From a virus (lineage: Duplodnaviria; Caudoviricetes): a stretch of 64,000 nucleotides of DNA. Below, in pieces: positions 3,354-50,986 of the stretch (position 1 is the stretch's first letter; the number at the start of each line of letters is the position of its first letter). Location: the IMG/VR virus record IMGVR_UViG_3300003965_000013, positions 3,540 through 67,539 of that record; one strand, given 5' to 3'. The notes under the pieces were generated by a model. The model was given only the letters and a program-made list of their open reading frames with translations. It ran no database searches and was not told the DNA's origin. Made by a program: the position numbers and the translations under genes.

Positions 3354-3779
3354 ATGCTGAAAGCTCAAATTATCGGCCACCTTGGTCAAGATGCAACTGT
3401 AAATAATGTAAATGGTAAACAGGTAATTAATTTTTCTGTGGCTCACTCCGAAACGTGGAAAGACACTACGGGCGAAAAGAAAAGTAAGACGGTATGGGTG
3501 AGTTGTTCTTATTGGACGGATAAAACCGGGTTGGTGCCTTACCTCACCAAAGGGACGCAGGTGTATGTGGAAGGAATGCCGGAAGCAAGGACGTATGCGA
3601 AGAATGATGGTACTACGGTGGCCCAACTGCAGTTGCGTGTTGGTACGGTGCAGTTACTTTCATCCGGAAATAATAATGCTGCAGGCAATGACGACTCAGA
3701 TAATACCCCCGAAAGGCAATACGAGCCCGTAACGCAGCAGCAGATGGGATCAGGTTATGTACAGAGGGACGGGTATTAG
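3354..3779 (+). CDS. ssb: Single-stranded DNA-binding protein (acidic DDLPF tail is out of frame)
   Basis: IIGHLGQD...VINFSVAHSE...GTQVYVEG OB fold; GEIVDDLPF* is encoded in the +1 frame at 3781-3810. Confidence 0.95.
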   Translation: MLKAQIIGHLGQDATVNNVNGKQVINFSVAHSETWKDTTGEKKSKTVWVSCSYWTDKTGLVPYLTKGTQVYVEGMPEARTYAKNDGTTVAQLQLRVGTVQLLSSGNNNAAGNDDSDNTPERQYEPVTQQQMGSGYVQRDGY

Positions 3780-3815: not shown

Positions 3816-3950
3816 GCCTTACGAATCAGTATTGGCGAAGGCAGGGCAATAGCGAACCGTCAGCCGAAATAACAAACTAAAGTAAAATTATTATTCAAAA
3901 TGTTGAGATTAAGAACGTCCAGCCAAACTATTGCCAATGCAATGTTAGCT
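3816..3950 (+). repeat. attC/attI-like site A0 (degenerate left core GCCTTAC; right core GTTAGCT)
   Basis: Arms TATTGGCGAAGGCAGGGC / GTCCAGCCAAACTATTGCCAATG. Confidence 0.55.
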
Positions 3951-3958
3951 GCCGTTTT

Positions 3959-4246
3959 TTGTCAAGACGCAAACCGCAAAATAAAATGGCAAAACCAATT
4001 TGCGTTATCAAAGTAGATAACAAACTCGGAACATTTACCCCTATTTATCAAATCCAAAGTTTACTGGATGATAGACTTAATGATTACCATGTTTTAGTTG
4101 TCCCATTCGAGCAGCCTGCTGACGAATATCACGAACCAATGCAAGTGCAGGTTTTTCACGAAAAAGACTTTACGGAAATTCAATACGCTGAACTTAAAAA
4201 GATTATATCTGATGCAGTAGAGACTGTCGCACCGAATGGCAGCTAA
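3959..4246 (+). CDS. Hypothetical cassette protein (cassette 1)
   Basis: 95 aa (ATG at 3986 likely); stop codon in GGCAGCTAAC. Confidence 0.75.
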   Translation: MSRRKPQNKMAKPICVIKVDNKLGTFTPIYQIQSLLDDRLNDYHVLVVPFEQPADEYHEPMQVQVFHEKDFTEIQYAELKKIISDAVETVAPNGS

Positions 4247-4375
4247 CGTGCCGGGGCTTTGCGGTCGTTGCCGAATTAGAATTACTAAACTTAAAAATAA
4301 AACTACAGATGAAAAAAGAAACAGGCGTTGAGCCTTTAACCGAAAGCGGCAATGCCGCACAAGCCAGTGTTGGGC
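4241..4375 (+). repeat. attC-like site A1
   Basis: AGCTAAC...GGCTTTGCGGTCGTTGCCG / CGGCAATGCCGCACAAGCC...GTTGGGC. Confidence 0.85.
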
Positions 4376-4590
4376 GCAGTGCCCAGCCGTTGACGCCTCA
4401 AACGGCTAACACCACAAACAAACTTTGCAAGCTGACTAGGGATAATATGTCGAATGGTGGATTTTGGATACTTGCACAGGAGAAAACTATTGTCATTTCC
4501 CGGCATCAAGACGGAAGCTCGTTGGAGGCATCAATAGAAATTCCGAAGTCGGTTTTTGATGCTTTCGTTGAGTTTTATACTAAAGGTTGA
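4309..4590 (+). CDS. Hypothetical cassette protein (cassette 2); N-terminus encoded inside site A1
   Basis: 93 aa; ...AAQASVGRSA spans the GTT crossover. Confidence 0.75.
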   Translation: MKKETGVEPLTESGNAAQASVGRSAQPLTPQTANTTNKLCKLTRDNMSNGGFWILAQEKTIVISRHQDGSSLEASIEIPKSVFDAFVEFYTKG

Positions 4591-4600
4591 TGGGCATTGC

Positions 4601-4730
4601 GCCCAACGTTTGACGTATTGGCGATGTGCCTGAATTGAAAAACAAAAGTTTAATAAAGTAATGCAGTTGAATAGCGATAAACAGTTTGCGGTAGCACCAC
4701 AACAGGCATTTTGCCAATACGGTGTTAAGT
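4601..4730 (+). repeat. attC-like site A2
   Basis: GCCCAAC...CGTATTGGCGATGTGCCTG / CAGGCATTTTGCCAATACG...GTTAAGT. Confidence 0.85.
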
Positions 4731-4817
4731 GCAGTGCCGTAGATGGTTTATTCTATCGCTCAATAGAATTGCTGAAGAAAAGTTTTAAACAGCGGGGCGG
4801 CTGAAGTCACAGCCTCT

Positions 4818-5618
4818 TTGATACCTATGAGTTATGAACTGAAACATGGAGACTGCTTGGAATTGATGAAGGATATTCCTACTGGCAGTATTGATATGAT
4901 ACTTTGTGATTTACCTTATGGCACGACTTCAAATAAGTGGGATGCTGTGATACCGTTTGAACCGCTTTGGGGGCAATACAAGCGGATAATAAAACCGAAT
5001 GGCGTAATTGCATTAACGGCTTCACAACCGTTTTCTTCTGCCCTTGTAATGAGCAATCCGAAGATGTTCAAGCATGAATGGATTTGGATAAAGAACAGAG
5101 GCGGCAACTTCGCTAACACCGTTAGAGAGCCTTTTAAGGAGCATGAGCAGGTTTTGATATTTAGCAATGGTAAATGGACGTATAACCGCCAAATGCAGGA
5201 AAGAACAGGCGCAGGAGCAGACAGGGTGAAGTATGACCTGAACTGGCGAAGCCAATCGGAAAACTACCGTGAATTTGAAGGTAGAGAAGGGCAAAGAGTT
5301 GGAGAATTAAGAGTGCCTTCTTCGTGGCAGAAGTTCAATGTTGATGTAAGTAAACTGCACCCGACTATTAAACCTGTACCACTTTTTGAATACCTTATAA
5401 AGACGTACACAAATGAAGGTGAAACGGTGTTGGATAACTGCATGGGAAGCGGCACAACGGGAGTTGCTTGCCTGAATTTGAAGCGGAATTTTATCGGGAT
5501 AGAGAAGGAAGAAAAGTATTATGAGATAGCACAGAAACGACTTTCCGAATTGCTGACGAAGGAAGCAAAGGGAAGCGTGGGCGGCTGTTTAAAACTTTTC
5601 GATGATGAAGCTGCATAG
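4818..5618 (+). CDS. DNA methyltransferase, N4/N6 beta class (cassette 3)
   Basis: DLPY catalytic motif, HPTIKP, VLDNCMGSGTT SAM-binding motif; ATG at 4827 likely. Confidence 0.92.
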   Translation: MIPMSYELKHGDCLELMKDIPTGSIDMILCDLPYGTTSNKWDAVIPFEPLWGQYKRIIKPNGVIALTASQPFSSALVMSNPKMFKHEWIWIKNRGGNFANTVREPFKEHEQVLIFSNGKWTYNRQMQERTGAGADRVKYDLNWRSQSENYREFEGREGQRVGELRVPSSWQKFNVDVSKLHPTIKPVPLFEYLIKTYTNEGETVLDNCMGSGTTGVACLNLKRNFIGIEKEEKYYEIAQKRLSELLTKEAKGSVGGCLKLFDDEAA

Positions 5619-5638
5619 AGTTCCGAAAGTGGCATTGC

Positions 5639-5764
5639 ACTTAACGGGTTCGGGCTTGGCGAAGTGGCTGAACCCGAAGCTAAATAGAATTACTAAACTT
5701 TAAAATTAAAAACAAATGTCAAATAGAATTACTGAACAGCCATTTTGCCAAACCCGTGTTAGCG
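5639..5764 (+). repeat. attC-like site A3
   Basis: ACTTAAC...CGGGCTTGGCGAAGTGGCTG / CAGCCATTTTGCCAAACCCG...GTTAGCG. Confidence 0.85.
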
Positions 5765-6018
5765 GTAGTTTTATTGTAGAGAAAGGCAATATATCTTTCT
5801 GCGATGGACACGGAACAAGGTATTGGCGTTTTATGGCAAAAGGATTAAAGCGTAAGGTTGAACACTTTATAGAAACTTTTGACAATGATTTAAAGCATAA
5901 TGACAAATACCATTGTTACATTGATTATGGTGGATGTATTGGCTATCGGTCATTTGATACGAACAATTTTAAAGAAGCAGTAAGTTGGATGTTGAAGCGT
6001 CTGAAAAATTACCGCTAA
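5716..6018 (+). CDS. Hypothetical cassette protein (cassette 4)
   Basis: 100 aa; QPFCQTRVSGS leader lies inside A3; stop in CGCTAAC. Confidence 0.75.
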   Translation: MSNRITEQPFCQTRVSGSFIVEKGNISFCDGHGTRYWRFMAKGLKRKVEHFIETFDNDLKHNDKYHCYIDYGGCIGYRSFDTNNFKEAVSWMLKRLKNYR

Positions 6019-6101
6019 CGTTCTGCCAGCTTTATGCTGTGCGCTGAACATATTATTAACTCACGGCACTTGTCCGCATAGCATAAAACTGCTTGTTATG
6101 T
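6013..6101 (+). repeat. attC-like site A4
   Basis: CGCTAAC...AGCTTTATGCTGTGCG / CGCATAGCATAAAACT...GTTATGT. Confidence 0.85.
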
Positions 6102-6118
6102 GCCGTTAATTTTAGTCT

Positions 6119-6349
6119 ATGAAATTATTTAAATATGGTGTAAGTGTTTTTGATAGCCGTCAAAAAAAGTACGGTGGATTTAATCACTTCATAGCAGGGA
6201 AAATATTTAGGTGGCGATTGTGTTATTTAGACATTTACCTGAAAAGAAAATTCAAATTTGAAATAGTCCACAATGATGATAACAGTTATTATGACGGCTA
6301 TCATAATCACGTTTGGGTTGGTTGGGTGTTGGTGTCTTATGGCACATAA
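6119..6349 (+). CDS. Hypothetical cassette protein (cassette 5)
   Basis: 76 aa; stop in ACATAAC. Confidence 0.7.
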   Translation: MKLFKYGVSVFDSRQKKYGGFNHFIAGKIFRWRLCYLDIYLKRKFKFEIVHNDDNSYYDGYHNHVWVGWVLVSYGT

Positions 6350-6398
6350 CGGTTTCGGGCTTTGCGTTCGTTTTAATGCCGCCAAACCGCTGTTATAA
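6344..6398 (+). repeat. Short attC-like site A5 (55 bp)
   Basis: ACATAAC GGTTTCGGGC...GCCGCCAAACC GCT GTTATAA. Confidence 0.75.
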
Positions 6399-6468
6399 GC
6401 TGGCTGCGGTTAATTAAAACAAAATCTCAATACGAAGCAATAAACAAAAGAATTAAAAAAAAGAAGCG

Positions 6469-7209
6469 ATGGCAATAGAAATTAAAAACAAAGACTGCTT
6501 TGAGTTAATGGCAGAAATGCAAGATAAGAGCATAAACTTAATCTTTGCAGACCCGTGGTATTATCCCGAAAACCAAAAAACAAAAAACGCTTTTGAAGAT
6601 GATGTGTTTTGGGATATTACAAAAAAATGGATGAAGGAGTTTATTAGATTGATAAAGGATGATGGGCATATATTCATAAGTTTTTCAAGTCAAAAAATGG
6701 CAAAGTTTGAGTTTTTACTTGCCGAATTTGGTGTGCCATTAAAAAGCAGAATTGTTTGGCATTATAGAAATGCTGGTGGCAGATGTGCTGACAAGGGACA
6801 ATTTGGAAAAACTTATGAGATGATTTATCACATTGGTTTTGGGGATAGATTAAATTTCCCAGAAAAATGGGGTGATGAAAGATTTGATGTTTGGACTATT
6901 GCAATACCGCAAAGCAATTTCACAGATAAAAAGATACACCCATTTCAAAAGCCAATAGCACTACTTGAAAGGGTTGTTGGAATTGGCAGCAATGAAGGTG
7001 ATTTAGTTTTAGACCCATTTTCAGGTAGTGGGACAACTGCATTGGCTTGCAAAAAACTAAATAGAAATTTTATTGGAAGCGAATTGAATAAAGAACATTA
7101 TGAAAATAGCTTGGAACGTCTTAACCTAAACGGTTTTGAAAAAACCGAAGCGGGTGGGCTTTTTTTTAATTCTTTTCAAACGGAATTGTCAAACGAAGCA
7201 GGAACGTAG
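6469..7209 (+). CDS. DNA methyltransferase, N4/N6 beta class, DPWY variant (cassette 6)
   Basis: FADPWY (normally DPPY), HPFQKP, VLDPFSGSGTT. Confidence 0.9.
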   Translation: MAIEIKNKDCFELMAEMQDKSINLIFADPWYYPENQKTKNAFEDDVFWDITKKWMKEFIRLIKDDGHIFISFSSQKMAKFEFLLAEFGVPLKSRIVWHYRNAGGRCADKGQFGKTYEMIYHIGFGDRLNFPEKWGDERFDVWTIAIPQSNFTDKKIHPFQKPIALLERVVGIGSNEGDLVLDPFSGSGTTALACKKLNRNFIGSELNKEHYENSLERLNLNGFEKTEAGGLFFNSFQTELSNEAGT

Positions 7210-7217
7210 CAGCTTGC

Positions 7218-7351
7218 TTATAACGGTAAGGTGTTGCTGTCAGTGTGGGAATTGGCAGCACAAAAGTTAAATTAAAAAGCAAAAGATAACAATATGAACG
7301 AAAGTAAAATTGAAAACGGTCAGCCCACATTGCAGCAACACAATGTTAGGC
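7218..7351 (+). repeat. attC-like site A6
   Basis: TTATAAC...GTGTTGCTGTCAGTGTGGG / CCCACATTGCAGCAACAC...GTTAGGC. Confidence 0.85.
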
Positions 7352-7503
7352 GCAGTTTTGAGGAATGGTCTGCCGACCTTGCTAAATTAATGAAACAATA
7401 TCCACTTGTACATAATAAATGGAAAGTTTCAAGATTTAGGACAATGTACAACGACGGGTTGTCAGTTAAAGAAGCATTTAGATGTTGGTTTTGCGCTCAC
7501 TAA
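7294..7503 (+). CDS. Hypothetical cassette protein (cassette 7)
   Basis: 69 aa; QPTLQQHNVRRS leader lies inside A6. Confidence 0.7.
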   Translation: MNESKIENGQPTLQQHNVRRSFEEWSADLAKLMKQYPLVHNKWKVSRFRTMYNDGLSVKEAFRCWFCAH

Positions 7504-7507
7504 TTGC

Positions 7508-7674
7508 GCCTAACGGTCAAAAATTGCTGTTGTGCGCCCTGAGTTTGGAGGCACGACAAACGTAAAAGGGCAAGCAACAGCAGAGGCAGACGGCGCATAA
7601 TAGCAATTTCATGTTGGCCGCCGTACGGGTTTAGTGGGATGCTCTGCCGAATTTTTTGACCGTTGGACAGCCAT
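7508..7674 (+). repeat. attC-like site A7 with two alternative right ends (7613 and 7661)
   Basis: AATTGCTGTTGTGCGCC / GGCGCATAATAGCAATT; AACGGTCAAAAATT (7512-7525) inverted at 7650-7663. Confidence 0.75.
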
Positions 7675-7763
7675 AAGTAAAACAAAAGGAGTGATAACGG
7701 TTTGGGTTACGGCTTTCACCCCGTATGAAAAGAAATAATTTTTTAACTATTAAATTTTACAAA

Positions 7764-7970
7764 ATGAGTTATGAAGCTCCTGCAAAAGAATCAGTAGTAT
7801 TCTGGCAGACAAATGAAGAAAATGGAGTAGGTGAGCCTGCTTTGTTGATTGAATTTTACAATGATGTTATGCAGATTTCGCAAGACGGTGAACGGATTAA
7901 CATCAACTATGAATCTATAAAAGATTTGGTAAAGATTTTAAGAACTGCAAATGAAAGGAAACCGTCTTGA
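7764..7970 (+). CDS. Hypothetical cassette protein (cassette 8)
   Basis: ORF 7725..7970; ATG at 7764 after an A-rich leader. Confidence 0.7.
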   Translation: MSYEAPAKESVVFWQTNEENGVGEPALLIEFYNDVMQISQDGERININYESIKDLVKILRTANERKPS

Positions 7971-8003
7971 TATTTCTTTGAATTACGGGGTGAAAGTATG
8001 GCG

Positions 8004-8140
8004 GTCCAACGGTCGGGTATTTCTGATGTGCCTGTAATCAAGGCTTGTCAGCCCGGTAGAAAATTATTCTAAAGATGAACAAGGAACAAATGTACATAGC
8101 GGATTCGTCAGCAGGCATAGCAGAAATACCTATGTTATCT
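8004..8140 (+). repeat. attC-like site A8
   Basis: GTCCAAC...GGGTATTTCTGATGTGCCTG / CAGGCATAGCAGAAATACCT...GTTATCT. Confidence 0.85.
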
Positions 8141-8767
8141 GCTGCCTTTGTCGGTCGTGTACTTGTTGCCTGTGAGTATTCAGGTCGTGTCAGAGATGCT
8201 TTTACTGCCAAAGGATGGGATGCTATTAGTTGCGATTTATTACCATCAAGAACGACAGGCAAACACTACCAGGGAAATGTTTTTGATATTATAAACGATG
8301 GCTTTGATTTATTGATAGGCTTTCCACCTTGTACTTTTATTACAAACGTTAATACAAAATGGCGTGGCGATATTGAAAGATTAAAGAAAGCATGTGATGG
8401 CATGAAGTTCTTTGCTGATTTATATTCTGCACCTATAAAAATGATTTGCCTGGAAAATCCAGTAGGCATGTTAAGTAATTGTTTTCGTAAGCCTGACCAA
8501 ATTATTACACCTGTTCAATTTGGCGGCTGTGAGCAAAAGAATACGTGCCTTTGGTTGAAGGGGTTGCCAAAATTAGTGCATACAAAAACGGATAATTTAT
8601 TCGAGAAAAGAACACACGGCGTTTTATCGGAAGAATTTACCAGCAATAAATCACACCGGCAAAGCCATTGGTATAACAATAATAAAAGTGAACGGTCAAC
8701 AACATTTCAATCTGTCGCAAATGCAATGGCTGAACAATGGACGGCTTTTGTCTTAGGTAGCAGATAA
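8075..8767 (+). CDS. Short phage DNA cytosine-C5 methyltransferase-like protein (cassette 9)
   Basis: VLVACEYSG, GFPPCT (catalytic PC), LENPVG; stop in AGATAAC. Confidence 0.8.
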   Translation: MNKEQMYIADSSAGIAEIPMLSAAFVGRVLVACEYSGRVRDAFTAKGWDAISCDLLPSRTTGKHYQGNVFDIINDGFDLLIGFPPCTFITNVNTKWRGDIERLKKACDGMKFFADLYSAPIKMICLENPVGMLSNCFRKPDQIITPVQFGGCEQKNTCLWLKGLPKLVHTKTDNLFEKRTHGVLSEEFTSNKSHRQSHWYNNNKSERSTTFQSVANAMAEQWTAFVLGSR

Positions 8768-8786
8768 CACAAGGATTTGCGTAACA

Positions 8787-13061: not shown

Positions 13062-16000
13062 TTGGAACCGCTCAAGAAAAAATATCTTAATGGGTTGTTG
13101 AACTGCGATGACGACTTTACGATGGTGGCACCCAATGAAATGGTGAACGCCAGTAATATCCGTTTTGGCAGTACCGATGACGGGGCAAATATGCGGTTTG
13201 AGAAAATTAAAGGCACAACGCTGGTATTTAACGGAATGGAGTATGTGGGCGGTGGTGATGCGTTTGAGTGTGTGGGGGCGTATGAAGATAAAGACCGGCA
13301 GCGGATGATTTTCTTTGCCTGGCATAACAATGTAGCTGCCAAACATGCGATTTATGCCTATGACCGAGTGGAAGATACTACCTACACTGTATTGAAAGAA
13401 GCACAGGTAGAAGGTGGGTTAGGATTTACACAAACAAAGTATATTGATGCGATTGAGATATGGGGCGACCTGTTGTTTTACACTACGGGCACGGGTGAAG
13501 TAAAAGTGATTAATATTGAACGGGGTATAAAACTCAACCATCCCTCATATACCACTACAGCCATCCCTTATGTTTCACAGTTAAAAGAAGAAGATATTGC
13601 ACTGATACGCAGACCTCCGGTATATGCACCGGTTGCTACCAAGCAGATTAACAGCGCTTTGACGGTGGATAATATTGGTGATAAGGCATGGAAATTCAGT
13701 TATATCTATGAGTATATTGACTTTCAGCAGAGCGTACCCGGCACATGGAGTTTGTTGGTGCCTTTTAACAAAAAGGGCGATATACAGAATGAAATTTCTA
13801 TATCCTTACCATTGGAAGAAGATGTGCCGCAAACGGTGCGGAAAGTGCGGCTGATAGCAAGGAGAATAGACACCAATGTAACCTATGTGATACGGGTGTG
13901 GGATAAAGATATTACGGCAGATGCAACGGCTATTACCACGCACAATGCGGGAACGGTGGCTGGCGACAGGCTGACTTTTGTGTTTAACAACAACAAGTAC
14001 ATTGAAACAGTTGCTCCTGCTATTGCAGATAAGATTGAGGATTCTGTACCAAGAAACGTACAGGCGTTGCAGGTAAACAGCGACCGGTTGTTTTTGAGCA
14101 ATTTTACCACAGGCTTTGCCGGAACAGGCATCAGCAGTTTAACAATAACACAGGTAAAGCAGAATTTTGCCACAGCACCGGTTACTACTTACAATATGTA
14201 TGAGGTAACGGCCATTTTCAATTTTCCCTATTCTGGCCCACCCACTTATTACTTTAGAGGTTTTTTTGTATTAAAACCAACTGATAATACCTATTGGGTA
14301 ATTGAAGGAAAGTTTGCAACACAAACGGGAAGCTATCCTGCTGTAACAACACCTACCAGCCCGGTAACATTGTTTAAGAACTGCGGTACTGTTTTAGGGG
14401 GTGATATGCTAAAGCCTTTGTTTGGTAACAGTATTGTGGTAACAACATTTGCCAGTACAGCAGCGGGAACGGTGCAGGATGGCGGTGCACAGGCAGTAAA
14501 CCTGCCTATGATCTTTAAAAGCAACAGCCCACGCAGCGTGGGTATTTGTTTTTACGATAAGTTTCACCGCATTATTGAAGCGGTGGTAAAAGACACCAAT
14601 ACATTTACCCCTAACTCCACTTTTGGAGCGGTGGCAGAAGATAAAACTACCGGCATTACCTGCACGGTAAGTAATGCAGCGGCGCTTACAGAAATACCGG
14701 AGAAAGCATTTTATTACGGATTTATTATTGGGCAGCCGTATGTAACACAAAACTTTGTAGAGTTTAAGGAAACGAATGTAAAGTACGGGAAGAAAAATGC
14801 AGATGGTACGTTTACCGTGGATTTAACCAATCCTGCTACTTCTGAATTTTTGGTGGTGAATGTAGGTAGTCTTTTAAAGAATGGTATTGGATATATCTTT
14901 CAGGAAGGAGATTTGTGCCGGGTGGCTATACAAATGACGGCGGGAGGTCAGTTGTTTACAAAGACCGTTAAAATTATTACGCAGATAGGCAGCAACCTGC
15001 TTACCGAGCTGGTGGATGTGGGCACTATTGGAGGCGCTGCAACACAGGCCAGCTTTGAAATTTATACACCGCTGCAACAGACTGAAAGTAGGTTTTACTA
15101 TGAAGTGGCTAACAAGTTTGCCGTTACCAACCCGGGAACGGGCAGCCGGGCTTATTCTACATTGAGCCATACCATACCAGGAGATACCCCAATTGTGGAA
15201 AGACTGGATGCGGTAAACGGTAAATATTTTGCTGAGGCCATGAGCAGCAATGACCTGTTTAGTAAGTTTTGGTTTACCAATGCAGGCAGGCCCATTGTTA
15301 TTTTTAAGGCAAGGGAAGTGGTGGAGCCTAACGTAATAAGTTGGAGTAATACAAGGTTTTTAGGAACAGAAATAAACGGCAGCAGTTCTTTTGAGGTGAA
15401 CAACCGGCAATCATTACCCATTAATGCGGGGGATGTAAAAAAACTTATCAATACCAGCAGCCTGCAGGAAGAAGGTGGTGTAATGGTTGCCCTTTGCCAA
15501 AGGGAAACACTGAGCCTGTATGTGGGCAGGGCACAGGTGAGTGATGAAACGCAGTTTAGTTTGATCTTAAAAACAGATACCGTTATTGGAACCGTGAATG
15601 GACTACGTGGAAGTTTTGGAACGCTGCACCCGGAGAGTGTGGTGTTTTTTAGAGGCAACCTGTACTGGTTTGATGCCATTAACGGAGCGTTTGTGCGGTA
15701 CAGTAATAACGGGCTGTTTGACATCAGCAACTACAAAATGAAAAGGGTGGCTTCTTTGCTTGCCCAACGGATGCAGATTAAAGATACAGGGGGTAATATA
15801 GCGGACGGGTTCCGGAATAAGATTGTGGGCGGTATTGATGTGCGGCATGAAGAAGTGCTATGGACGATACCAAAGGTGTTTGATACAGCACCCAAAGGAA
15901 GCCTGAGCGACTACAGCCCGGCTACAAGTTATTTTTACCCTTATGATTTGTTTGACGGCGTAAGTAAAACACTGGTGTTTAAGATACAGGCCGATAAATG

Positions 16001-16493
16001 GATGAGCAGCTTTTCTTTTGCGGCTGATGGCTTTTGCAGTTGTAATAACGAACTGTACAGTTTTAACCTGGGGCGATTATACAAACACAATACAGGCGCT
16101 TTTAATAGTTTTTACGGAACAACGTATAAAAGCAGGATGGCGTATGTGATTAATGAAGATGTGAACCAAACGAAGGTGTTTAAAAGCATTAATATTGAAG
16201 GCGACACAAAACCATCCTGGACGCACATGCGCACGGAGTGGCCGGTGGTGCAGAGTACGGAAATAGTAACAAGTGAATGGGTGCAAAAGGAAACGGGTTA
16301 TTATGCACCGATACTGAACAGCAGACTAAGCCCCAACCCCGTAGGTGCTACAGTGAACGAAAAGATGCTGAGGGGCGAACCGATGCGGGGGCAGTTTTTG
16401 CTGGTATGTATGGATTTTGACGGCGGCGGCAGCCAGATGAATACAAGATTTTTTAATGTGTTACATAACAGGTCTTACGGCCATAAACAATAA
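13062..16493 (+). CDS. Tail muzzle/stabilisation protein (P22 gp10-like beta-propeller)
   Basis: 1143 aa; GLLNCDDD...PNEMVNASNIRF N-terminus and GTLHPESVV...LYWFDAINGAFVR C-terminal blocks typical of this family. Confidence 0.75.
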   Translation: MEPLKKKYLNGLLNCDDDFTMVAPNEMVNASNIRFGSTDDGANMRFEKIKGTTLVFNGMEYVGGGDAFECVGAYEDKDRQRMIFFAWHNNVAAKHAIYAYDRVEDTTYTVLKEAQVEGGLGFTQTKYIDAIEIWGDLLFYTTGTGEVKVINIERGIKLNHPSYTTTAIPYVSQLKEEDIALIRRPPVYAPVATKQINSALTVDNIGDKAWKFSYIYEYIDFQQSVPGTWSLLVPFNKKGDIQNEISISLPLEEDVPQTVRKVRLIARRIDTNVTYVIRVWDKDITADATAITTHNAGTVAGDRLTFVFNNNKYIETVAPAIADKIEDSVPRNVQALQVNSDRLFLSNFTTGFAGTGISSLTITQVKQNFATAPVTTYNMYEVTAIFNFPYSGPPTYYFRGFFVLKPTDNTYWVIEGKFATQTGSYPAVTTPTSPVTLFKNCGTVLGGDMLKPLFGNSIVVTTFASTAAGTVQDGGAQAVNLPMIFKSNSPRSVGICFYDKFHRIIEAVVKDTNTFTPNSTFGAVAEDKTTGITCTVSNAAALTEIPEKAFYYGFIIGQPYVTQNFVEFKETNVKYGKKNADGTFTVDLTNPATSEFLVVNVGSLLKNGIGYIFQEGDLCRVAIQMTAGGQLFTKTVKIITQIGSNLLTELVDVGTIGGAATQASFEIYTPLQQTESRFYYEVANKFAVTNPGTGSRAYSTLSHTIPGDTPIVERLDAVNGKYFAEAMSSNDLFSKFWFTNAGRPIVIFKAREVVEPNVISWSNTRFLGTEINGSSSFEVNNRQSLPINAGDVKKLINTSSLQEEGGVMVALCQRETLSLYVGRAQVSDETQFSLILKTDTVIGTVNGLRGSFGTLHPESVVFFRGNLYWFDAINGAFVRYSNNGLFDISNYKMKRVASLLAQRMQIKDTGGNIADGFRNKIVGGIDVRHEEVLWTIPKVFDTAPKGSLSDYSPATSYFYPYDLFDGVSKTLVFKIQADKWMSSFSFAADGFCSCNNELYSFNLGRLYKHNTGAFNSFYGTTYKSRMAYVINEDVNQTKVFKSINIEGDTKPSWTHMRTEWPVVQSTEIVTSEWVQKETGYYAPILNSRLSPNPVGATVNEKMLRGEPMRGQFLLVCMDFDGGGSQMNTRFFNVLHNRSYGHKQ

Positions 16494-17282: not shown

Positions 17283-18688
17283 TGGTAGCAAATATAGTAT
17301 TACCCAGCAATGAAGTACCAGTGCCTGATATTGGCAATGCCATCCTGCAGATAAGAAGCAGGCAGGAGGCGCTGCAGCGCAAGCAGCAGCAAGACCAGGA
17401 GGACACCATACGGTATTTAACCGAGAAACTGGACTATTCCAAGTTTGGAACGGGAACGGCCGCCGATGAGAATATCAACAACATGCTGAATGGTATTTAC
17501 ACGAAGTATGCGGATAGGATTAAAAACAACAAAGGGATGAACAGCGGGCAGGTGTTATTTGAGATGCAGCAGGATGTGAATGGTATTAAAGCCTACTCAC
17601 AGAACGTGCAGGCGTTGCGAAAAAATATTGATGATTATGTAACCAAGTACACACAAAACGCAAAAGATATTGACGGTAATCTGTTAAAGAGAAATGCTTT
17701 GACCAATGCGCTGTTTAAGATTGACCCCAATACAGGGCAACCAAAACTAAAAGACCCCGGCGAGATTGACCCGAATGTGGACTATGTGGGAGAGATTATT
17801 AAGAACAGGCCGGAGGATGTGTTTGGCACCAATTTGATGTGGGTGAACGACCGTATAAAAGCAATGGAAGAAACACCATTAAGCGGTGAGGTGGTGAGAG
17901 ACAGGGGCGGAGTGAAAAGAACAGCCATGTGGGAAGCAAAGCTGAAACCATTTGAAACGGTGCTGTATGATGGAGAAGGTAAACCAAAGGGTGCGGGCAT
18001 TAAAACAAAAGTGGAAAAGTTGTTTGGGAAAGATGTGGCTACCCTTGACCCGGAAGTATATGGTATTATGTTTGGCGGCAGTGAAGATGAATTTAGGATA
18101 AGGGCGGCTATGAGAAGGATGGCAAAGGAGAAAGGCGTATTTGTTGACCCCAATACACCCGAAGGAGAAATTATGAAACGTGCGGTGGCGTATGATCTGT
18201 TAAAAGGTTTCAGGCCGCAGGGAGATTTTAAGTATAAGGATAAGGAGGATGAAGATACATGGAGATCCAAGCAGAATGCGGGGATAACGATTATTAACCA
18301 GGGGGGCGGTAAGAAGGATGAAGTGCCAACCTATGATATGTTTGGTGAGGTAGAGAACGTGCTGAAAGCCGAGAACAGGATAGAAAGAGGCGTTGGCATC
18401 AGCCCGAAACTATTGCCGATTGATATACAAACACAGATCAAAACCAACCTTGAAAACAGCGGGTATAAAGATATTACGCCTGATAAGTATTGGTTGAAAA
18501 TGGGGGAAGATGGTGTGATTAATATTTACCGTAAAAAGGGAAGTCAGTTAACGTTTGAAGTAATGGGAACGATTAGCAAACCCGGAATGAATATAGAGGC
18601 AAATAAAAAACTTGGGCAAAAAGCCACTCAAAAAGCGGCTAAAGATCAAAAACAAACAACAACTCCTTCGGGAATACAATGGAAGTAA
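17282..18688 (+). CDS. Putative ejection (cargo) protein
   Basis: 468 aa helical; lies between cargo-like and giant genes. Confidence 0.5.
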   Translation: MVANIVLPSNEVPVPDIGNAILQIRSRQEALQRKQQQDQEDTIRYLTEKLDYSKFGTGTAADENINNMLNGIYTKYADRIKNNKGMNSGQVLFEMQQDVNGIKAYSQNVQALRKNIDDYVTKYTQNAKDIDGNLLKRNALTNALFKIDPNTGQPKLKDPGEIDPNVDYVGEIIKNRPEDVFGTNLMWVNDRIKAMEETPLSGEVVRDRGGVKRTAMWEAKLKPFETVLYDGEGKPKGAGIKTKVEKLFGKDVATLDPEVYGIMFGGSEDEFRIRAAMRRMAKEKGVFVDPNTPEGEIMKRAVAYDLLKGFRPQGDFKYKDKEDEDTWRSKQNAGITIINQGGGKKDEVPTYDMFGEVENVLKAENRIERGVGISPKLLPIDIQTQIKTNLENSGYKDITPDKYWLKMGEDGVINIYRKKGSQLTFEVMGTISKPGMNIEANKKLGQKATQKAAKDQKQTTTPSGIQWK

Positions 18689-18689
18689 T

Positions 18690-21600
18690 ATGCCGGATCA
18701 AATTGAGCAATATTATAATTATTTGAAAGGCGCCGGTGCTGATGTGGCACCTACGCTTCAATCCTTTCGTAAGACTCTTGCTGATGATAAAACAGCAAAA
18801 CAGTATTATGAATATCTGAGACAGAATAAATTTGATGCCCCCGACACTTACGAATCATTTGCGGGTACGTTAGGTATTAAAAAAAAAGTTGGTGGCGCAC
18901 CATCTGGCTTAACTTCAGAGGAACAAAATAAGTACAACCTTATTTTACAAAAGCAACAGGAGTTTATGCGTAGTGGCGGCAAGCAACCTGCTAAGCAGGA
19001 TAATCTTGTGCTTCCTCAGCCTATTCAAAAAATAAAGACCGCAGAACAGCAAGACGGCAGAACGGTTTTGCAAAAAGATAAAGACGCAAGAGGCAACAAA
19101 GAAACCGCTTTACAAATTCAAAAAAGGATTATTAAAGAACAAACATCAAAGCCGGGGATGCCCGCTGTGGCTGCGCCTGAGCCCGTGGTAGATGGGCTGA
19201 ATGTAATTACCGATCCTGATGAAATATTGGGGTACAACTTACGAAACCCTGAAAAGAATAAAGTACAGGTAAAATATGAGCAAGAGCAACAGAAGAAAAA
19301 AGAAACCGAAGAACTGATTGAACAGGCGCAGGCGGATGTGTTTTACAATACACCCGCAGGAAAGTTTTACTACAATATTTTTAAACCATTAGCAAAAGCT
19401 GGTGGCGCCGGGCTTGCCAATCTAACGAGTGGTACAGTACGAACAGCAGGCGATATAATTGGTGCAGACGAAATTACCGGGGAGTGGGCGGATGCTATTT
19501 ACGATTACATACACCCGGACAAACGATGGACGGAAGAGAAAACTAATTGGATGGGTAAAACACCTACCCCATTGCAGGGTAATTTGTTTAATGACGGTAA
19601 ACTGAATGCGGCTAAGATAGTACCATCAACCGTAGAAACGCTTACCAATATGGCCTGGCTGTTTGGTACGGCGGCAGTGGGTAACGCTGCGGGTGCTGGT
19701 AGTGTTCCATCACTGATTGGAGCTTCTTACATTAATACGCAAAGCGATTACAGGGAAGCAGGGAAGCAGGCGGGGTTGAAAGGTGAAGCGCTTGATAATT
19801 TTACCACCATGAGTGCGGGGCTCACCTCTTTACTGGAAGCGTTTAGCCCGAACAAACTGATTACCGGAGGTGTAAAAACCCAGATGGCGAAAGAATATGC
19901 GGAATATTTGGCAAAGGGCTATACTTCCAAACTGGCGTTCAAGCAGGCATCAAAGCAACTGGCCAAGGAGATAACCACGGAGAATATACAGGAAATTTCA
20001 CAGGGTGCGGGTGATAAGATGGTGCGTTTGCTGTTTGACAAAACCAGTGAAAAGCCTTTGTTTAACGATGATCTTTCCTGGAATGGGATTAAAGATGAGT
20101 TGTTTGAAACCATGGTACTGACAACATTCAGTACCGGTGCTTTATCAACTCCCGGTGCCATCCGTAACAGCAGACCCAGCACTTTTGAAAAAAGTGCATG
20201 GTATAATGTGGCGCAAAACCCTGAGCAGTTTAATGCGTTCATCAATAAACAGGTGCAGGAAGGAAAAATGGACCTGCCCAAGATGCAGGTGCTTACGGAT
20301 AATTACAACAAATACCGTGGAGCGGTGGAGCAGGCTAAGCAGTTTGGGTTTAGTGAACACCAGGCGGTAGAAGCAGCGTGGCAAATATTTAAGGGTCGTG
20401 AACTGGACAATGAGTACAAACGCATTGCCAATAACCCCGTATTAAAAGAGGCGGTGGGCAATGAAATAAAAGAGGAACAGAAACAAACGGGCAACGAGGT
20501 AAAACGTATTGGCTTGGGCATTCCGGATGTGGGTGGTGAACTGAGTGGTGGCGAAGTGGTGCAGATTGTAAACCATATAGGTGATAAGTTTGGAGAGCCA
20601 ACCGCTGAGATGCAGGAACGTATTGGGGCTAATGAATACAGGGTGGAAGAAATTGATTTGAAAAACCTCTATGAAACAGATGCAGGGTTTAAGAATTACG
20701 TGGAGAATTACGACCGTAAAGAAAAGAATAAGGATGGGTTGATAGTACCTGCAATCATGGCAAAAGACGGTACGATTGAAGATGGCAAGAGCAGGCTGGC
20801 CCAGCAATACATTAACGGGGAAACCAAGGCAAAAGTTTTTCAACCATTAAAAACAAATATCAATGAAAGGGAAGAAAAAGGGCAAGAAGAATTGTTGACC
20901 GGTTCTGATGCCATGACAAAGCAACAACCTGCGGCGGCCAAACCAAAGCAGGTTGTATTACCTCAGCAACAGGAATACAAAGGCCGGAGGTTGAAGGTGG
21001 TGTATGATGGCAATAAGCGGGTGGTGAAGGGTAAGAACGGCAAGGTAATAAAGCAGGACACACCCGAAGCCAAACGTATTTTACGGCAGCATGAGGACAA
21101 TTACAATTACAATTTTGGACAACCGGCAGCCACGGAGCAAATGCCTGAAAACATAGCACCTGAACAGGCGGGCAGGTGGATTGCGGAGAACAGTAATAAC
21201 CCGGCAGAAGTGGCGGGGCTGTATTTGCAAGAGCCCGGGCAAACAAGATTTAGGGATAAGAAAGAAGAACTGATTGCTGAATACGGTATTGGTAAATTTA
21301 CCAGCAGTGATTTTGCGGGTGTAGATGATAAGGCCAATATTACCGCAGGCATGGCGAAAAGTTATTTTGCCGGTAAGAGTAATGCAGCCGTACAGGGGAT
21401 AGATGTTTATGCCAAAGAACTGAGCGATCACTACGGAATTGAGTTTACGCCACAGGATGTGGCAGATTTTATAAAACGTTTTCCGAACCGGGAGTTTGGT
21501 GGTACAGACAGGACAGAAACCGCAGAAGCGGCGGCCCAGCGTTTTGAAGATCTGACAGGCATACCATTGACGGATAGGGTGGCTGCTATGGCCGCTGCAC

Positions 21601-24600
21601 AGTTTGCGCCCGAAGAACTGGTGAACGAAGCAAGGCAGGAAGAAGATGCGGAAGCAGAACGACCATTGACCGAGGATGAGATTTTGGAGATTAACAGTTT
21701 GTTACAGGAGGACTTTGAAAATAGTGATAACTTAGATACCTTTACGGACGATGAAACAGGAACTATACCTGAAACAGATACAGCAGCAGATGCCCAACCT
21801 GGCACCGGAGCAGCAGCAGAAAGCGGCGGCACACCTGTACAAGAAGGCGGTGAACAAACGGGTGCTGAGCAAGATGAAGAAATCTACGAGCAAAACGATG
21901 ACGACTTAATTGGATCTCTTGCGGCAGAACTTGAAAATGAACTCAACAACCCAACGGAATTAGGAACGGGTGGTTTTGCCAGCGAAACAAAACAATACGA
22001 TGCAGCAATCTTACGGACAAATGAGCAATCAACCACAGCATTCGGCAACTTATCCGGGTTATCCGCTTCTGCCATTGAAAGAAGTTTGGAAGCAACTGGA
22101 AGAGTATTATGGGTTGAATATTCAAAGCAACAGGGAGATGGTATTGCTGAACAGCAGCCTGTTCCGATCAGCTACAAAAGAGCAGCAGATGCCCGACAAT
22201 TGGGCGGCGGGGTATTATTGGCTGGCGACCAAGACTACAGCGGAGCAACTTTGCAAAACATACGGCAAGAATTTGGAACAGGAAGCGAACAGTTTAAATA
22301 CGAGCTTTCCCATGTGCTTGCCACAAGATTATTGCAGCCAGGTAACTTCACAGGAAAACTTTTACGGAGTAATAAAGCACTTTCAGCCGTTGATATAATA
22401 CTGGACAACAACCCCAATCCAGACAGTTACTTTTTAATTTATAACTCAGCCGGTTTTATAAAAATAAACATGGCGGCCGCTGCTAAGAGGTATGAACTTC
22501 TTGGTGAGCAGGCGTTTTGGCCTTATGCGGAAACTGCTTTGCAGGAAGAGGTGATTCATGCCGTGAGTGATGTGATTACCTCCGAAGCAGAGTGGGAAAC
22601 CATATACAACGAACTTACGCCGGATGAGGTAGCAAGTATTAAAGAACTGTACGACAAAGACGATCTTACCAACAAACAGGTAGCTGGTGAATACGTGCGT
22701 ATGATGGTGCAGGAAAAGGTGTTTGGTGTAACTACCGAACTGTTTACACTGCGTTCTACAACGGGATTACTGAATACATTTAAAAAGTTACTGAGTTATT
22801 TGAAGGGTGTATTTGCAGGCAACCCCAACCGTGTGAGCAAGGAAGTGATTGAAAGAGTGGAGACGGCGGTAAGGGAAATGAATGCAGAGGTAAAAGCCGG
22901 TGTTGGCAAATTAGGAGAAGTGGGTACGGGAAGGTTTGATGATGAATTGGGCGTTGATATTGTGGATGGTTTTTACAGCAGTCTTGAAAAAAGGCTGGCC
23001 GATATGAAGCCTGTAAAGATACCGCCGAAGCAATGGAAGGAGCGGCTGAAAAGCCAGGAGGCGGAGTTTACCGGATTGAATGCGTGGCTGGACAGCAAGA
23101 AAGAAAGCGTATCAAAAGAAGAGGTGCAGCAGTTTTTAAAAGATAACAGGATTGAGATAAAAGAGGTTAGGTTAGGCGAAAAAGAATACTCAACCCAGTG
23201 GGAAAAGATGAAGGACGGCTGGAAAAGAAAGATTGGCAATAGGTGGACGTTTGTTTGGGAATACCCATCAGGTATTTATGGACAAGGGCCAAGTGGCTAT
23301 CAACGAAAATTTAATTCAGTAGAAGAAGCAAAGAATCATTTTGATGAAGATGATACGTCTGCCAGCTCAAAGCCGACAAAGTATTTTCAATATCAACTTC
23401 CCGGCGAAAAGAGTAATTATAAAGAGGTGTTGGTGACGTTGCCCCCTGCAAAAAAAGGACAAGAGATGTTTCGGGGTTCTCATTTTGATGAATACAACAT
23501 CCTCGTTCACTTGCGCATGAACACCCGTACAGATGCGGATGGTAATAAGTTATTGTTTATTGAAGAAGTGCAGAGTGATTGGGGGCAGAAGGGGAAGAAG
23601 GAAGGGTTTGATAATAAAGAGCTTGAAAAAGAACGAAACACCTTGCTCGATGAAAGACGTAACCTTGAGAAAAAAGAGAGTGAAAATATAGTTGTTAAAA
23701 AAGTTGGGAATACTGGATTTGTAAACGATTTTCAAACTACATACAAAAACGAAGATTTACAAAAATCAATAAACCAAAGATATAAAGAGATAGATGATCG
23801 TATATTAAAAATAAATTCTCAAACAGGTATAACACCATCCGCCCCCTTCGTTACAGACACAAACGCATGGGTTAAACTTGGGTTGAAGGTAGCCCTTAAA
23901 GAAGCTATTAAGCAAGGTGCTGATAAGATTGCATGGACTACTGGTGAGCAGCAGAATGAACGATATGATTTGAGTAAGCAGGTGAAAAGTATTGAAGTTG
24001 AAAAAGTTGATGATGTACCTAATTTATTTTTTGTTGACATCAATATGCTCAATGAAACAAAAACACACAACTTAGAAGTAGAAAACGGCATAGTAAGACA
24101 AGGTGAATTTGTTGGGCAAAAACTTGAAGATATAGTAGGTAAAGATGTATCTGAAAAAATACTTAACGGCGGCACTCAAACATTAACAGGCGACAATCTA
24201 AAAGTTGGCGGCAAGGGCATGAAAGGATTCTACGGCAACCCTGCCGATGGTAGCCTTGGCATTGTGGGTAATGTAGCGAAGAGTTTGTTTAAGCAGGAGA
24301 TTAAGACTTCAACTATAAAAACAGGCGCAAATCTTGAAACTGATGGCGAAGTTGGATTTTATGAACTTAGTGATGGCGAGTATGCAGTAGAATACAAAGG
24401 AGAGCAAAAAGAGTTTGATAATATTACAGATGCACAAAACTATTACGATAGTATTACTAAATCCACATCTACCCAGCACTCCGTAGATATTACTCCCGAA
24501 TTAAAAATGGCGGTAAACAGAGGATTGCCATTTGAGATGGGCACCGGCGGTTTTGGTTCCAACTTCAACAACAATGCAACGGTTAAAAACTTTATTCAGA

Positions 24601-34725: not shown

Positions 34726-36051
34726 ATGCCACAAGGATTAGGCACTCAAAATAAAAAGACCGTAAGTGCGGTGGATATGTACGACGCAAGAGACATATTC
34801 CGTGACGGTATCTTAGACATCTACGACCAGGAAGGGTTGATGGATATTTTAAAGCTCAGTAACCGTATGGAGAAACACACTTCTTCCAACTGGGTATTTC
34901 ACAATTTTACAGATGAGGATGTGAACCGTACAGTAACCGCTCAGGCAACTGTATTAACAAGCGGAACACCATCTGTAACCGTTCCTATTAACGTACAAAA
35001 CTATGTGCGTGAGGGGGATTTGATTACTACCGTTTCCGGAAAGCAGGCCCGTGTGTTTTCAGTAACAAGGGGTACACCTGACAGCATGGTTATTAAATCT
35101 GTTGACGGTGGCAACCTTACTGTAACAGCCGGTGACGTGCTGGTTGTGGGTAGCCGTGCAGAGCGTGAAAACAGTAACGCTCCTGAGAACCTGAATTTTA
35201 CTCCTACCAAAGCATTGGGTAAGATTCAAGCGTTTTCTGAAACCTACCGGATTACCGATGTTGAAAAGTTTGATACCAAAGAAGTAAGCGTACAGGGCAG
35301 CAAAATGATTGTTGACTACGGTGCGTTGAAAACATTGCAGAAACTTTTAAGCCAGGTAAACTATCAGATGATTGCAGGGCAGATGAGTGCTACCAGTTTT
35401 TCTGACAGCGCTCCCGGTGATGTGGATGCTGATGGCTACACGTATCAAAGCACCCGTGGCTTGCATGATTACATTGCCTTTGGTGGTGGCGTAAGCGACA
35501 GTGTGGCTTCTGCAGGTACGTTTACAAAAGCCGATCTGGACGACCATGTAAACCAGATTGTAGCTAACAGAACAACCGCTACATCGTTCCTCGGTTTGCG
35601 TTCTACCAAGATTGCAAACATTATGGACAGTTATTTTAAAGGCACCAGCAATACCGGAATGACCAGTGCAAGGCTGCAGGTGGATGGCAAGGAGATCAAC
35701 TTTGATGTTGAAAAAGTTACATCTGGTGGTTTAACCTTCCAATACGCTGTATTGCCCATATTGAACAACCCACGTTTGTTTAATATGACCGGTAATATTT
35801 TCCATAACACGCTTTACCATATTCCACTTGACAAAGTGAAGCTGGTGGGCGGTGGTTATGCCGGCCGCATCCGCCTCCGTTATAAAAATACTCCTTCTGA
35901 GTATGGTAACGGTATGATTGCGGAAGCACACAGCGGTATGTTTGGCAAAGGCGGTAACAGCCTGAAAGCAAACATGGAGAAGCGTTTTTACACTGCGCAG
36001 GGGCTTGAAATTCTTGGCCCTCAGCACTTCTCAAAGTTGCAGTTCATTTAA
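34726..36051 (+). CDS. Major capsid protein
   Basis: 441 aa after the scaffold gene, followed by a strong terminator; ...QSTRGLHDYI...GLEILG C-terminal pattern. Confidence 0.8.
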   Translation: MPQGLGTQNKKTVSAVDMYDARDIFRDGILDIYDQEGLMDILKLSNRMEKHTSSNWVFHNFTDEDVNRTVTAQATVLTSGTPSVTVPINVQNYVREGDLITTVSGKQARVFSVTRGTPDSMVIKSVDGGNLTVTAGDVLVVGSRAERENSNAPENLNFTPTKALGKIQAFSETYRITDVEKFDTKEVSVQGSKMIVDYGALKTLQKLLSQVNYQMIAGQMSATSFSDSAPGDVDADGYTYQSTRGLHDYIAFGGGVSDSVASAGTFTKADLDDHVNQIVANRTTATSFLGLRSTKIANIMDSYFKGTSNTGMTSARLQVDGKEINFDVEKVTSGGLTFQYAVLPILNNPRLFNMTGNIFHNTLYHIPLDKVKLVGGGYAGRIRLRYKNTPSEYGNGMIAEAHSGMFGKGGNSLKANMEKRFYTAQGLEILGPQHFSKLQFI

Positions 36052-48283: not shown

Positions 48284-48377
48284 TGGTAACAAGGCATTTG
48301 CGTCATTGCCCTTTGAGGTGTCTGCTAAAATTGAGGTGTCTGCGTGGGCAACGAACGCAAATACCCAACCGTTAGTG
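48284..48377 (-). repeat. attC-like site B1
   Basis: (- strand) CACTAAC GGTTGGGTATTTGCGTTCGTTGCCC / GGGCAATGACGCAAATGCC TT GTTACCA. Confidence 0.75.
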
Positions 48378-49093: not shown

Positions 49094-49348
49094 TTAGCGG
49101 CTATGTATAGACACAATCATAACCGTGTCACCAACAATGTATTTATTAGCACTATCTTTTAACCACCACGAGTTTTTCCCTGTAACTGAAATCATTTGGT
49201 ATTGATAAATGCCTTTACCATAAGGCTGTACATTTTTAACATAAAATCTTCCATCAGAAGGCATCAGCTCGCCGCAAGATGAAAACACAGCCACTAACAA
49301 TAAAATTGCCACAAGTACGGCTGACGAATGTAAATTGAACTTTTGCAT
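49094..49348 (-). CDS. Putative lipoprotein (cassette-borne)
   Basis: LLVAVFSS-C; stop in CGCTAAC. Confidence 0.65.
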   Translation of the reverse strand: MQKFNLHSSAVLVAILLLVAVFSSCGELMPSDGRFYVKNVQPYGKGIYQYQMISVTGKNSWWLKDSANKYIVGDTVMIVSIHSR

Positions 49349-49367
49349 AGATTTATTTTTTCAGGTT

Positions 49368-49547
49368 TTACAGATACTCATTAACTATTTGTTTAGCTGC
49401 CCATATTAGGTAAATAACAAACAAAAATGATATTACACCAATTGTTTCTTGAGAGTAGTATCTTGCCGCTAAATACAGAAGGTATCCAGCTAAAATAAAA
49501 GCCGCCGCTATCACCACGCTTAAAAGCCATTTGAGTATGTGTTTCAT
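49368..49547 (-). CDS. 59-aa two-TM membrane protein (below the ORF-track cut-off)
   Basis: Manual translation MKHILKWLLSVVIAAAFILAGYLL...WAAKQIVNEYL. Confidence 0.6.
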   Translation of the reverse strand: MKHILKWLLSVVIAAAFILAGYLLYLAARYYSQETIGVISFLFVIYLIWAAKQIVNEYL

Positions 49548-50559: not shown

Positions 50560-50584
50560 TGGTCATAGCCGCAAAACGTTAGCT
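50454..50584 (-). repeat. attC-like site B2
   Basis: (- strand) AGCTAAC...GCGGCTATGACCAGTGGCGG / CCGCCATTGGTTATAGCCG...GTTAGCA. Confidence 0.85.
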
Positions 50585-50906: not shown

Positions 50907-50986
50907 AGTAATTCAATTTTGCTTTAGTAATTTATTCGGCTAACGTGCAAGAAATCCCACACGGCAGCAATACCTGAACGTTCTTT
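50856..50986 (-). repeat. attC-like site B3
   Basis: (- strand) AAAGAAC...GGTATTGCTGCCGTGTGGG / CCCACATGGAACCAATGCC...GTTAGCT. Confidence 0.75.

Follow-up and report, generated by a model that had tools for sequence, protein, structure and literature searches.

The 64,000-nt window analysed here (positions 3,540 to 67,539 of IMG/VR record IMGVR_UViG_3300003965_000013) was found to correspond to C1:3309390-3373389 of a complete, single-contig bacterial chromosome of 3.98 Mb (G000), and therefore represents a crAss-like prophage or integrated element. In addition to the genes listed in Table 1, the window carries two cassette arrays in which open reading frames (ORFs) alternate with imperfect hairpins, one on the plus strand directly 3' of the SSB gene (3820-8768; nine hairpin sites) and the other on the minus strand directly 3' of dnaB (52344-48288; four to six sites). 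In many of these sites a predicted start codon lies inside the hairpin loop, and comparative data indicate that the hairpin travels with the ORF that follows it. No match to the tyrosine recombinase domain PF00589 was detected in the 64-kb window. No close relative of the prophage was found amongst viral contigs searched via DnaB, and a family-wide DNA search returned no syntenic relative of the arrays, only isolated hairpins and pieces of SSB and methylase genes.

The sites follow the layout AAC-G, spacer of ~5 nt, 5' arm, loop, 3' arm, 1-3 nt and GTT, with lengths of 45-126 nt and 13-20 paired arm positions. As in attC sites of integrons, an inverse core RYYYAAC (R'') and a core GTTRRRY (R') flank an imperfect inverted repeat, and at least two such sites are arrayed with no integrase nearby, which is the definition of a cluster of attC sites lacking integron integrases (CALIN); an adjacent intI gene with the IntI-specific domain, as in a complete integron, was not found beside the arrays. 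The placement also departs from that of classical attC sites, which lie 3' of the ORF with the G/TT crossover (the slash marks the cut) at the 3' end of the site on the coding strand. At least four bases after each GTT were complementary to the bases before the next AAC, that is, across the ORF (GTTGGGCGCAG with TGCGCCCAAC, GTTAAGTGC with GCACTTAAC and GTTAGCGG with CCGCTAAC), and not to those before the AAC of their own hairpin; the same was true in the Flavobacterium phage sequence L001. This complementarity is a signature of integron cassettes and shows that exchange of units took place at the AAC or GTT triplets or close to them. The spacer is asymmetric, with no classical pattern of extrahelical G and T established, and the coding strand was the better folder in 51 of 70 sites, by a mean of 1.3 kcal/mol. 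Similar arrays of 14-17 sites occur in Flavobacterium siphophages of the genus Muminvirus (L001, L016-L018), and further sites of this kind in Polaribacter phage P12002L, the CALIN of which has already been published (PMC9892861).

An original prediction made from the sequence had placed eight ATG codons upstream of the GTT, mostly inside the hairpin arm, and had assigned everything up to the G to the preceding cassette, such that shuffling would swap N-terminal leaders and could switch genes on or off by frame compatibility. ATG codons are indeed present at 4309, 5716, 7294 and 8075 on the plus strand and at 50906 and 49348 on the minus strand, whilst 50559 (-) is a GTG in the 5' arm, with the first in-frame ATG (50517) in the loop, and 52315 (-) is a TTG, followed in frame by ATGs at 52296 and, right after GTT, 52153. 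The codon at 49348 belongs to a decayed site that has lost its 5' arm; the surrounding sequence does not fold (z = +0.68) and leaves a 3'-arm-like remnant with an R'-like GTTAGTGG. The ATGs are situated not in the arm but in the A-rich loop, 42-60 nt before GTT and 17-35 nt before the 3' arm. ORFs from 4309, 5716, 7294, 8075 and 50906 read through the 3' arm and GTT, and the hairpin thus encodes a start codon and an N-terminal leader of 14-24 residues. All of the predicted junction peptides were reproduced, as were both reading phases (GTT = Val, or xxG-TTA). The accompanying claim that only two phases are used is weak: the third phase was open in 11 of 23 phage sites and closed in five because TAG or TAA falls inside GTTAR, and a designed restriction to two phases was accordingly rejected. 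At 3900 and 4661, additional loop ATGs begin short upstream ORFs (uORFs) that precede genes equipped with a start of their own.

To follow one hairpin type beyond the window, exact matches to the 25-nt 3' arm of site 5643-5760 were retrieved from IMG/VR viral contigs, at least 119 of which contained one. The loop ATG was retained in 80 of 82 instances of this hairpin type and entered an ORF of at least 50 codons in 64 of the 82, which is more than chance; 50 of these 64 were read with GTT as Val and 14 as xxG-TTA, by way of a 1-nt deletion after the ATG. Proteins encoded downstream fell into 21 families, 15 of which were fused to the loop ATG (about one third expected), and at least eight families have no other plausible canonical start near their conserved N-terminus. 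In the SGSTF-type methylases (e.g. L001 gp010), for instance, the next in-frame candidate lies 29 codons past GTT, within the conserved DPPY region, and alignment of methylases showed that homology to relatives with their own start begins 2-6 residues past the leader. C5 methylases were joined to the leader in either phase, in keeping with the 1-nt indel in the loop; as proof that frame is under selection this argument is weakened, since the frame-2 families represent few lineages and have GTG alternatives. At most chromosomal sites with this arm family, where the ORFs occupy the opposite strand, the read-throughs were short only. The deposited coding sequence (CDS) of the filifjonk gp010 methylase already starts in the loop, and its leader, ending QPFCQTRV-SGS, is shared with the unrelated 100-aa ORF of the window (5716); a second leader is common to the unrelated L001 gp007 and gp012. 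From these patterns we conclude that many cassettes very likely initiate translation in the loop.

The same box complementarity would arise whether the crossover lay at the 5' or the 3' end of the hairpin, and the location was therefore decided with comparative data. Phages mumin6-1 and mumin6-3 differ by a 499-bp unit consisting of a hairpin, gp008 and GCATAAC, with breakpoints within a common TAACGTT at the hairpins' 5' ends. Filifjonk has two insertions, a block of three cassettes and an additional final cassette, and tooticki has a cassette replacement, all likewise bounded by AAC/GTT or AAC/flank; all four Muminvirus polymorphisms (one indel, two insertions and one replacement) break in TAAC/GTT. 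A bacterial contig from another genome of the family (G148) matches window 7153-7225 at 100% identity, and the two sequences part immediately past AAC-G. Both the Muminvirus arrays and the plus-strand array of the window begin with a hairpin and end with a bare RYYYAAC half-site. For the common hairpin, in a viral set selected on that one type and containing many related contigs, 39-108 pairs shared the downstream but not the upstream sequence, whilst the converse was seen in no pair; amongst 262 ORF modules lying between two sites, similar modules kept only their upstream core 5-21 times and only their downstream core 0-1 times (~20:1). Six ORFs of the window, by our reading, stop at the TAA within the TAAC of R'', and a cut between AA and C would leave the stop with its ORF.

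These breakpoints and linkages identify the recent mobile unit as the hairpin, the downstream ORF and RYYYAAC, often including the TAA stop, contrary to the assignment of the hairpin to the previous cassette. As the hairpin travels with the downstream ORF, routine shuffling moves start, leader, ORF and stop together, and nothing points to the proposed position-dependent layer of translational control. Published recombination assays with IntI1 on sites of Polaribacter phage P12002L were considered as a guide to polarity and found uninformative, because attC1, a related site type, did not recombine (PMC9892861) and attC2 is a different, A/T-rich sequence.

Exchange at GTT nevertheless occurs. 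The prediction that N-termini of homologues should diverge exactly at the GTT-encoded Val was borne out by 12 homologues of ORF 5716-6018, the bodies of which are mostly 80-90% identical to the query and carry at least eight unrelated leaders. In four contigs the cores both upstream and downstream differ whilst the segment from GTT to AAC is conserved, such that the linkage between hairpin and ORF is not absolute, though exchange at GTT is much rarer than at AAC. Every surviving partner hairpin provides an in-frame ATG to this start-less ORF body, which is consistent with selection on frame compatibility over evolutionary time. It is conceivable, though we hold it as a tentative idea, that a large phage pool of inverted cassettes (in Flavobacteriia phages and crAss-like prophages) uses the hairpin both for recombination and as an exchangeable, standardised start module (A-rich loop, ATG and a leader in either of two phases) that can be grafted at GTT onto start-less ORFs, such exchange creating or silencing genes; the frame compatibility of the original prediction would then operate on an evolutionary and not a regulatory time scale, possibly via second-strand recombination.

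The host chromosome harbours arrays of 185-190-nt sites of the same arm family as those of the phage at ~271-285 kb (C1:270976-284672), adjoined by a 383-aa Xer-like tyrosine recombinase (C1:265078-266229; both regions are covered by L019 and L020), and a lone site beside a recombinase paralogue at 3.09 Mb (C1:3094742-3096520; L021). In these arrays, as in the majority of those on the chromosomes of related genomes, ORFs occupy the opposite strand with respect to site polarity, which is the classical order of ORF then attC; the phage units are therefore of the same kind, with their ORFs inverted. The host recombinase is co-directional with the cassette ORFs. These Xer-like recombinases (383-391 aa) scored best on the archaeal XerA/integron-integrase model, at 200 bits against a cut-off of 220, and have no IntI-specific insert.

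We consider it probable that the arrays are composed of integron-type cassettes with inverted ORFs, a crossover at the 5' AAC, and a recombination site that doubles as a translation-initiation region. The cassette would comprise the hairpin core, GTT-RRRY, the ORF and RYYY-AAC, and the crossover that moves it would be the 5' AAC on the coding strand, equivalent to the canonical G/TT on the opposite strand; the chemistry is canonical solely on the view that the ORFs are inverted with respect to those of classical cassettes. Since the structured site precedes the gene, it would also be the region in which translation begins, and inverted ORFs would need initiation signals of their own, placed inside the site. 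In Bacteroidota, translation starts on unstructured, A-rich leaders that have no strong Shine-Dalgarno sequence. The loop may be such a region, with the 17-35 nt from the ATG to the 3' arm offering enough room for an initiating ribosome. In about half of the cassettes the ribosome would start at an ATG after an A-rich tract in the unpaired loop and read the 3' arm and GTT, fusing a generic leader of 14-24 residues in frame to the protein; in the others the loop ATG opens a short uORF or is absent, and the gene would use its own ATG after the stem. Elongation would melt the stem and, in cassettes with a uORF, clear the gene's own start, by analogy with ORF-11 and the short ORFs of attC sites in class 1 integrons (PMC8876359). 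Unrelated proteins would share leaders, and homologues differ in them, because hairpin types are common to unrelated cassettes and occasionally exchanged at GTT.

Several points weigh against this explanation. No protein of the genome reaches the family cut-off for an integron integrase: the best match to TIGR02249 scores 174 bits against 265, does not cover model positions 180-240, and sits beside the related chromosomal arrays ~3 Mb from the window. Extrahelical bases of classical attC sites serve as a guide to polarity, and by that analogy the longer spacer on the 5' arm would predict the opposite polarity. The linkage counts do not represent independent events, because of the selection on one hairpin type and the relatedness of contigs, and the homologues of ORF 5716-6018 in which both flanking cores differ show exchange at GTT as well. 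The start is uncertain for the ORFs from 8075 and 50906 and for a putative helix-turn-helix (HTH) ORF, where downstream starts are possible, and also for ORF 4309-4590 because of its TTG and ATG alternatives (Table 1).

Canonical cassettes with a 3' G/TT crossover, in which the leader is supplied by the upstream cassette and swapped at each shuffle to switch genes by frame, would account for the many leaders of the ORF 5716-6018 homologues with divergence exactly at GTT, for the occurrence of one leader on unrelated proteins, and for an arm-length asymmetry like that of the classical top strand. This arrangement is already disfavoured, and in our estimation improbable, given that the four recent polymorphisms and the G148 junction all break at the 5' AAC, that pairs with a shared upstream and different downstream sequence are absent against 39-108 of the converse, that core linkage favours the downstream ORF by ~20:1, and that the plus-strand array ends without a hairpin. 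We regard as equally unlikely an artefact of ORF extension, whereby true starts would lie at or after GTT, the loop ATGs would be conserved solely because they belong to the hairpin, and the frames left open across the arm, which is richer in G+C, would be incidental. ATGs overlapping or directly after GTT (8132, 50864, 52153 and GTTATG types) fit such an artefact, as do the GTG alternatives of the frame-2 family and the retention of the loop ATG where it opens a short ORF only (16 of 82 instances; G122); the families without a canonical start near their conserved N-terminus (at least eight), the excess of families in frame with the loop ATG (15 of 21) and the mostly short read-throughs at chromosomal sites with ORFs on the other strand do not.

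The hairpins might instead be phage regulatory stem-loops, such as terminators or promoters, with homologous recombination from one hairpin to another as the cause of gene shuffling. PeSL elements, attributed to Arbiol et al. in 2010, are reportedly mobile regulatory cassettes of this sort in T4-type phages, promoter-plus-stem-loop repeats that recombine by homology. Like PeSLs, the present hairpins are stem-loops that separate small accessory genes in plastic parts of phage genomes and are associated with gene shuffling; unlike the present sites, PeSLs have neither AAC/GTT core boxes nor complementarity across the ORF. The lack of an integrase in the window, the A/T-rich loops with a repeated AATTACT motif, the position of arrays in early or replication gene blocks and the failure of one Polaribacter site of this type with IntI1 (PMC9892861) are all compatible with regulatory elements. 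Box complementarity across the ORF and not within the hairpin, however, points to site-specific exchange at AAC/GTT, the same arm family is arrayed beside a tyrosine recombinase in the host chromosome, and breakpoints are confined to the 7-nt core, making a purely regulatory role the least probable of these alternatives.

Inverted-ORF cassettes with their own expression signals, e.g. those of toxin-antitoxin systems, are found in chromosomal integrons. The cassettes described here resemble these in having ORFs opposite to the canonical attC polarity and, presumably, expression independent of Pc, and differ in that whole arrays are inverted and that an A-rich tract and ATG are inside the attC loop. 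With integron cassettes and phage CALINs (PMC9892861) they share arrays of single-gene units, a box complementarity specific to each cassette, and an imperfect palindrome bounded by RYYYAAC and GTTRRRY; the published phage CALINs also carry orphan DNA methylases, and that of the Polaribacter phage has the same short site type. Unlike in those systems, the site precedes the gene, the ORF strand has the crossover AAC at its 5' end, the long spacer is asymmetric (~5 versus 1-3 nt), the R boxes are complementary over 11-22 nt, the site itself contains the start codon and leader, and no IntI reaches the family cut-off. ORF-11 and ORF-18 of attI1, and short ORFs in attC sites, relieve the barrier that stem-loops pose to translation, according to work cited in a review (PMC8876359, sections 3.1-3.2). 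The likeness consists of an initiation codon in the recombination site, an ORF crossing the core, and translation through structure that helps the following gene, a pattern that the uORFs at 3900 and 4661 fit; there, the ORF is usually separate and short and comes from the platform or preceding cassette, whereas here it belongs to the gene's own cassette and is fused in frame in about half of the cases. Phage CALINs with methylases and short ORFs inside attC sites are thus already known. A literature search for inverted-ORF arrays, for gene-proximal crossover, and for a start and leader encoded in the site and joined in frame to many unrelated proteins found none of these, and in-frame starts and leaders encoded by the hairpin appear to be unpublished.

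This arrangement bears on annotation, as integron finders and gene callers presume the order of ORF then attC; here, cassette boundaries are mis-assigned and starts may be mis-called. Deposited records already place some CDS starts inside hairpins without comment. A single recombination site can, moreover, contribute coding sequence to many unrelated proteins, which is relevant to expression without a platform promoter and to the building of new cassettes. In terms of counter-defence, an extensive, mobile set of orphan methylases and other small proteins carried by phages of marine and freshwater Bacteroidota is linked to integron-like arrays of the host, providing a concrete exchange route for anti-restriction genes.

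Table 1. Genes of the window and features of its two cassette arrays (window coordinates)
Feature	Position	Strand	Remarks
SSB	3354-3779		
Hairpin 1	3820-3946	+	Directly after SSB stop; 5' box TAC-G, not AAC-G
Short uORF	from loop ATG 3900	+	~37 aa (our reading); overlaps cassette start 3986
Cassette ORF	3986-4246	+	Own ATG; TAA stop within R'' box GCTAAC
Hairpin site	4245-4371	+	AAC 4245, GTT 4369; loop ATG 4309
93-aa ORF	4309-4590	+	Starts in loop; GTT = Val; alternatives TTG +21, ATG +78
Hairpin site	4605-4726	+	Loop ATG 4661 opens 47-aa uORF (4661-4804) ending 23 nt before methylase ATG
N6/N4 DNA methylase	4827-5618	+	Own ATG, ~100 nt past GTT
Hairpin site	5643-5760	+	Loop ATG 5716; 90% identical to Flavobacterium phage filifjonk9-1 site
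100-aa ORF	5716-6018	+	Loop ATG sole plausible start (next Met is residue 40); TAA stop in R''
Short hairpin	6017-6097	+	78 nt, no loop ATG; next ORF 6119-6349 has own start
Very short hairpin	6348-6394	+	45 nt; next ORF is methylase 6469-7209, own start
Hairpin site	7222-7347	+	Loop ATG 7294; weak Rfam WsnRNA46 match
69-aa ORF	7294-7503	+	Starts in loop; next ATG is residue 33
Hairpin site	7512-7615	+	No read-through loop ATG; only a GTT-overlapping ATG (7-aa ORF); next ORF 7725/7764-7970, own start
Hairpin site	8008-8136	+	In-frame loop ATGs 8075, 8090; ATG 8132 overlaps GTT
230-aa ORF	8075-8767	+	Homologue of filifjonk gp005 (annotated DNA methyltransferase); homologous core begins 8 residues past ATG 8132; TAA stop in R''
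Terminal R'' half-site GCAGATAAC	8760-8768	+	Closes plus-strand array; no hairpin after
crAss-virus muzzle protein match	13062-16493		ORFs
2948-aa ORF	18612-27458		After muzzle-protein ORFs
SU10-type capsid match	34726-36051		Weak
DnaB	52394-53770	-	
First minus-strand site	52154-52344	-	After dnaB; 18-bp stem, 130-nt loop, TAC-G 5' box; ATG 52296 in loop, in-frame ATG 52153 directly after GTT
ORF of first minus-strand site		-	Candidate HTH protein, read by eye
Hairpin site	50860-50982	-	Loop ATG 50906; ATG 50864 overlaps GTT; ORF 50906-50586
Hairpin site	50458-50580	-	Loop ATG 50517; ORF is methylase, frameshift-split at G run near 50200
Decayed site	49298-49402	-	Keeps R'' remnant, 3' arm and R'; 5' arm gone
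ORF	from ATG 49348	-	Candidate lipoprotein, read by eye
Last hairpin of minus-strand array	48288-48373	-	No ORF after

Further observations concern the sequence of the cassettes and sites. The cassette ends form conserved modules, comprising the first ~40 nt past GTT and the last 25-73 nt ahead of AAC, with inverted repeats of 11-22 nt, which are 89-100% identical between cassettes with different ORFs (window 7153-7225 versus L024 52-124; window 6384-6436 versus L001 7864-7917); the 3' end module encodes a C-terminal tail common to methylases. A loop motif, (T)AGAATTACT(A/G)AA, was present in one or two copies in both phage and chromosomal sites (window 5680-5745, 4270-4290 and 50935-50910(-); L019 7164-6979), and could be a protein-binding or promoter element. 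A scan for sigma-70 promoters gave no excess over shuffled sequences, whilst terminator-like hits were modestly above shuffles (10 versus 4.6 +/- 1.9). In the Rfam search, the only match was a full-length but sub-threshold one of the whole site 7213-7358 (+) to WsnRNA46 (Wolbachia small RNA 46; 33 bits, E = 0.0006), a family that may itself be an attC-like palindromic repeat.

Both arrays open with the identical junction TGCCTTAC-G, containing TAC and not AAC, just after SSB and dnaB (window 3816-3823 and 52350-52341(-)); on the backbone side, it may represent one half of the site at which the first insertion took place. In the minus-strand array, the cassette methylase is present as two overlapping ORFs broken at a run of eight G (window 50146-50210), which could reflect a frameshift, a sequencing error or a phase-variable tract. 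The small candidate lipoprotein ORF from 49348(-) has a hydrophobic stretch and a lipobox-like motif encoded by what is left of the 3' arm and R' box in the decayed site (window 49348-49270(-)), the leader of which may have been exapted as a signal peptide.

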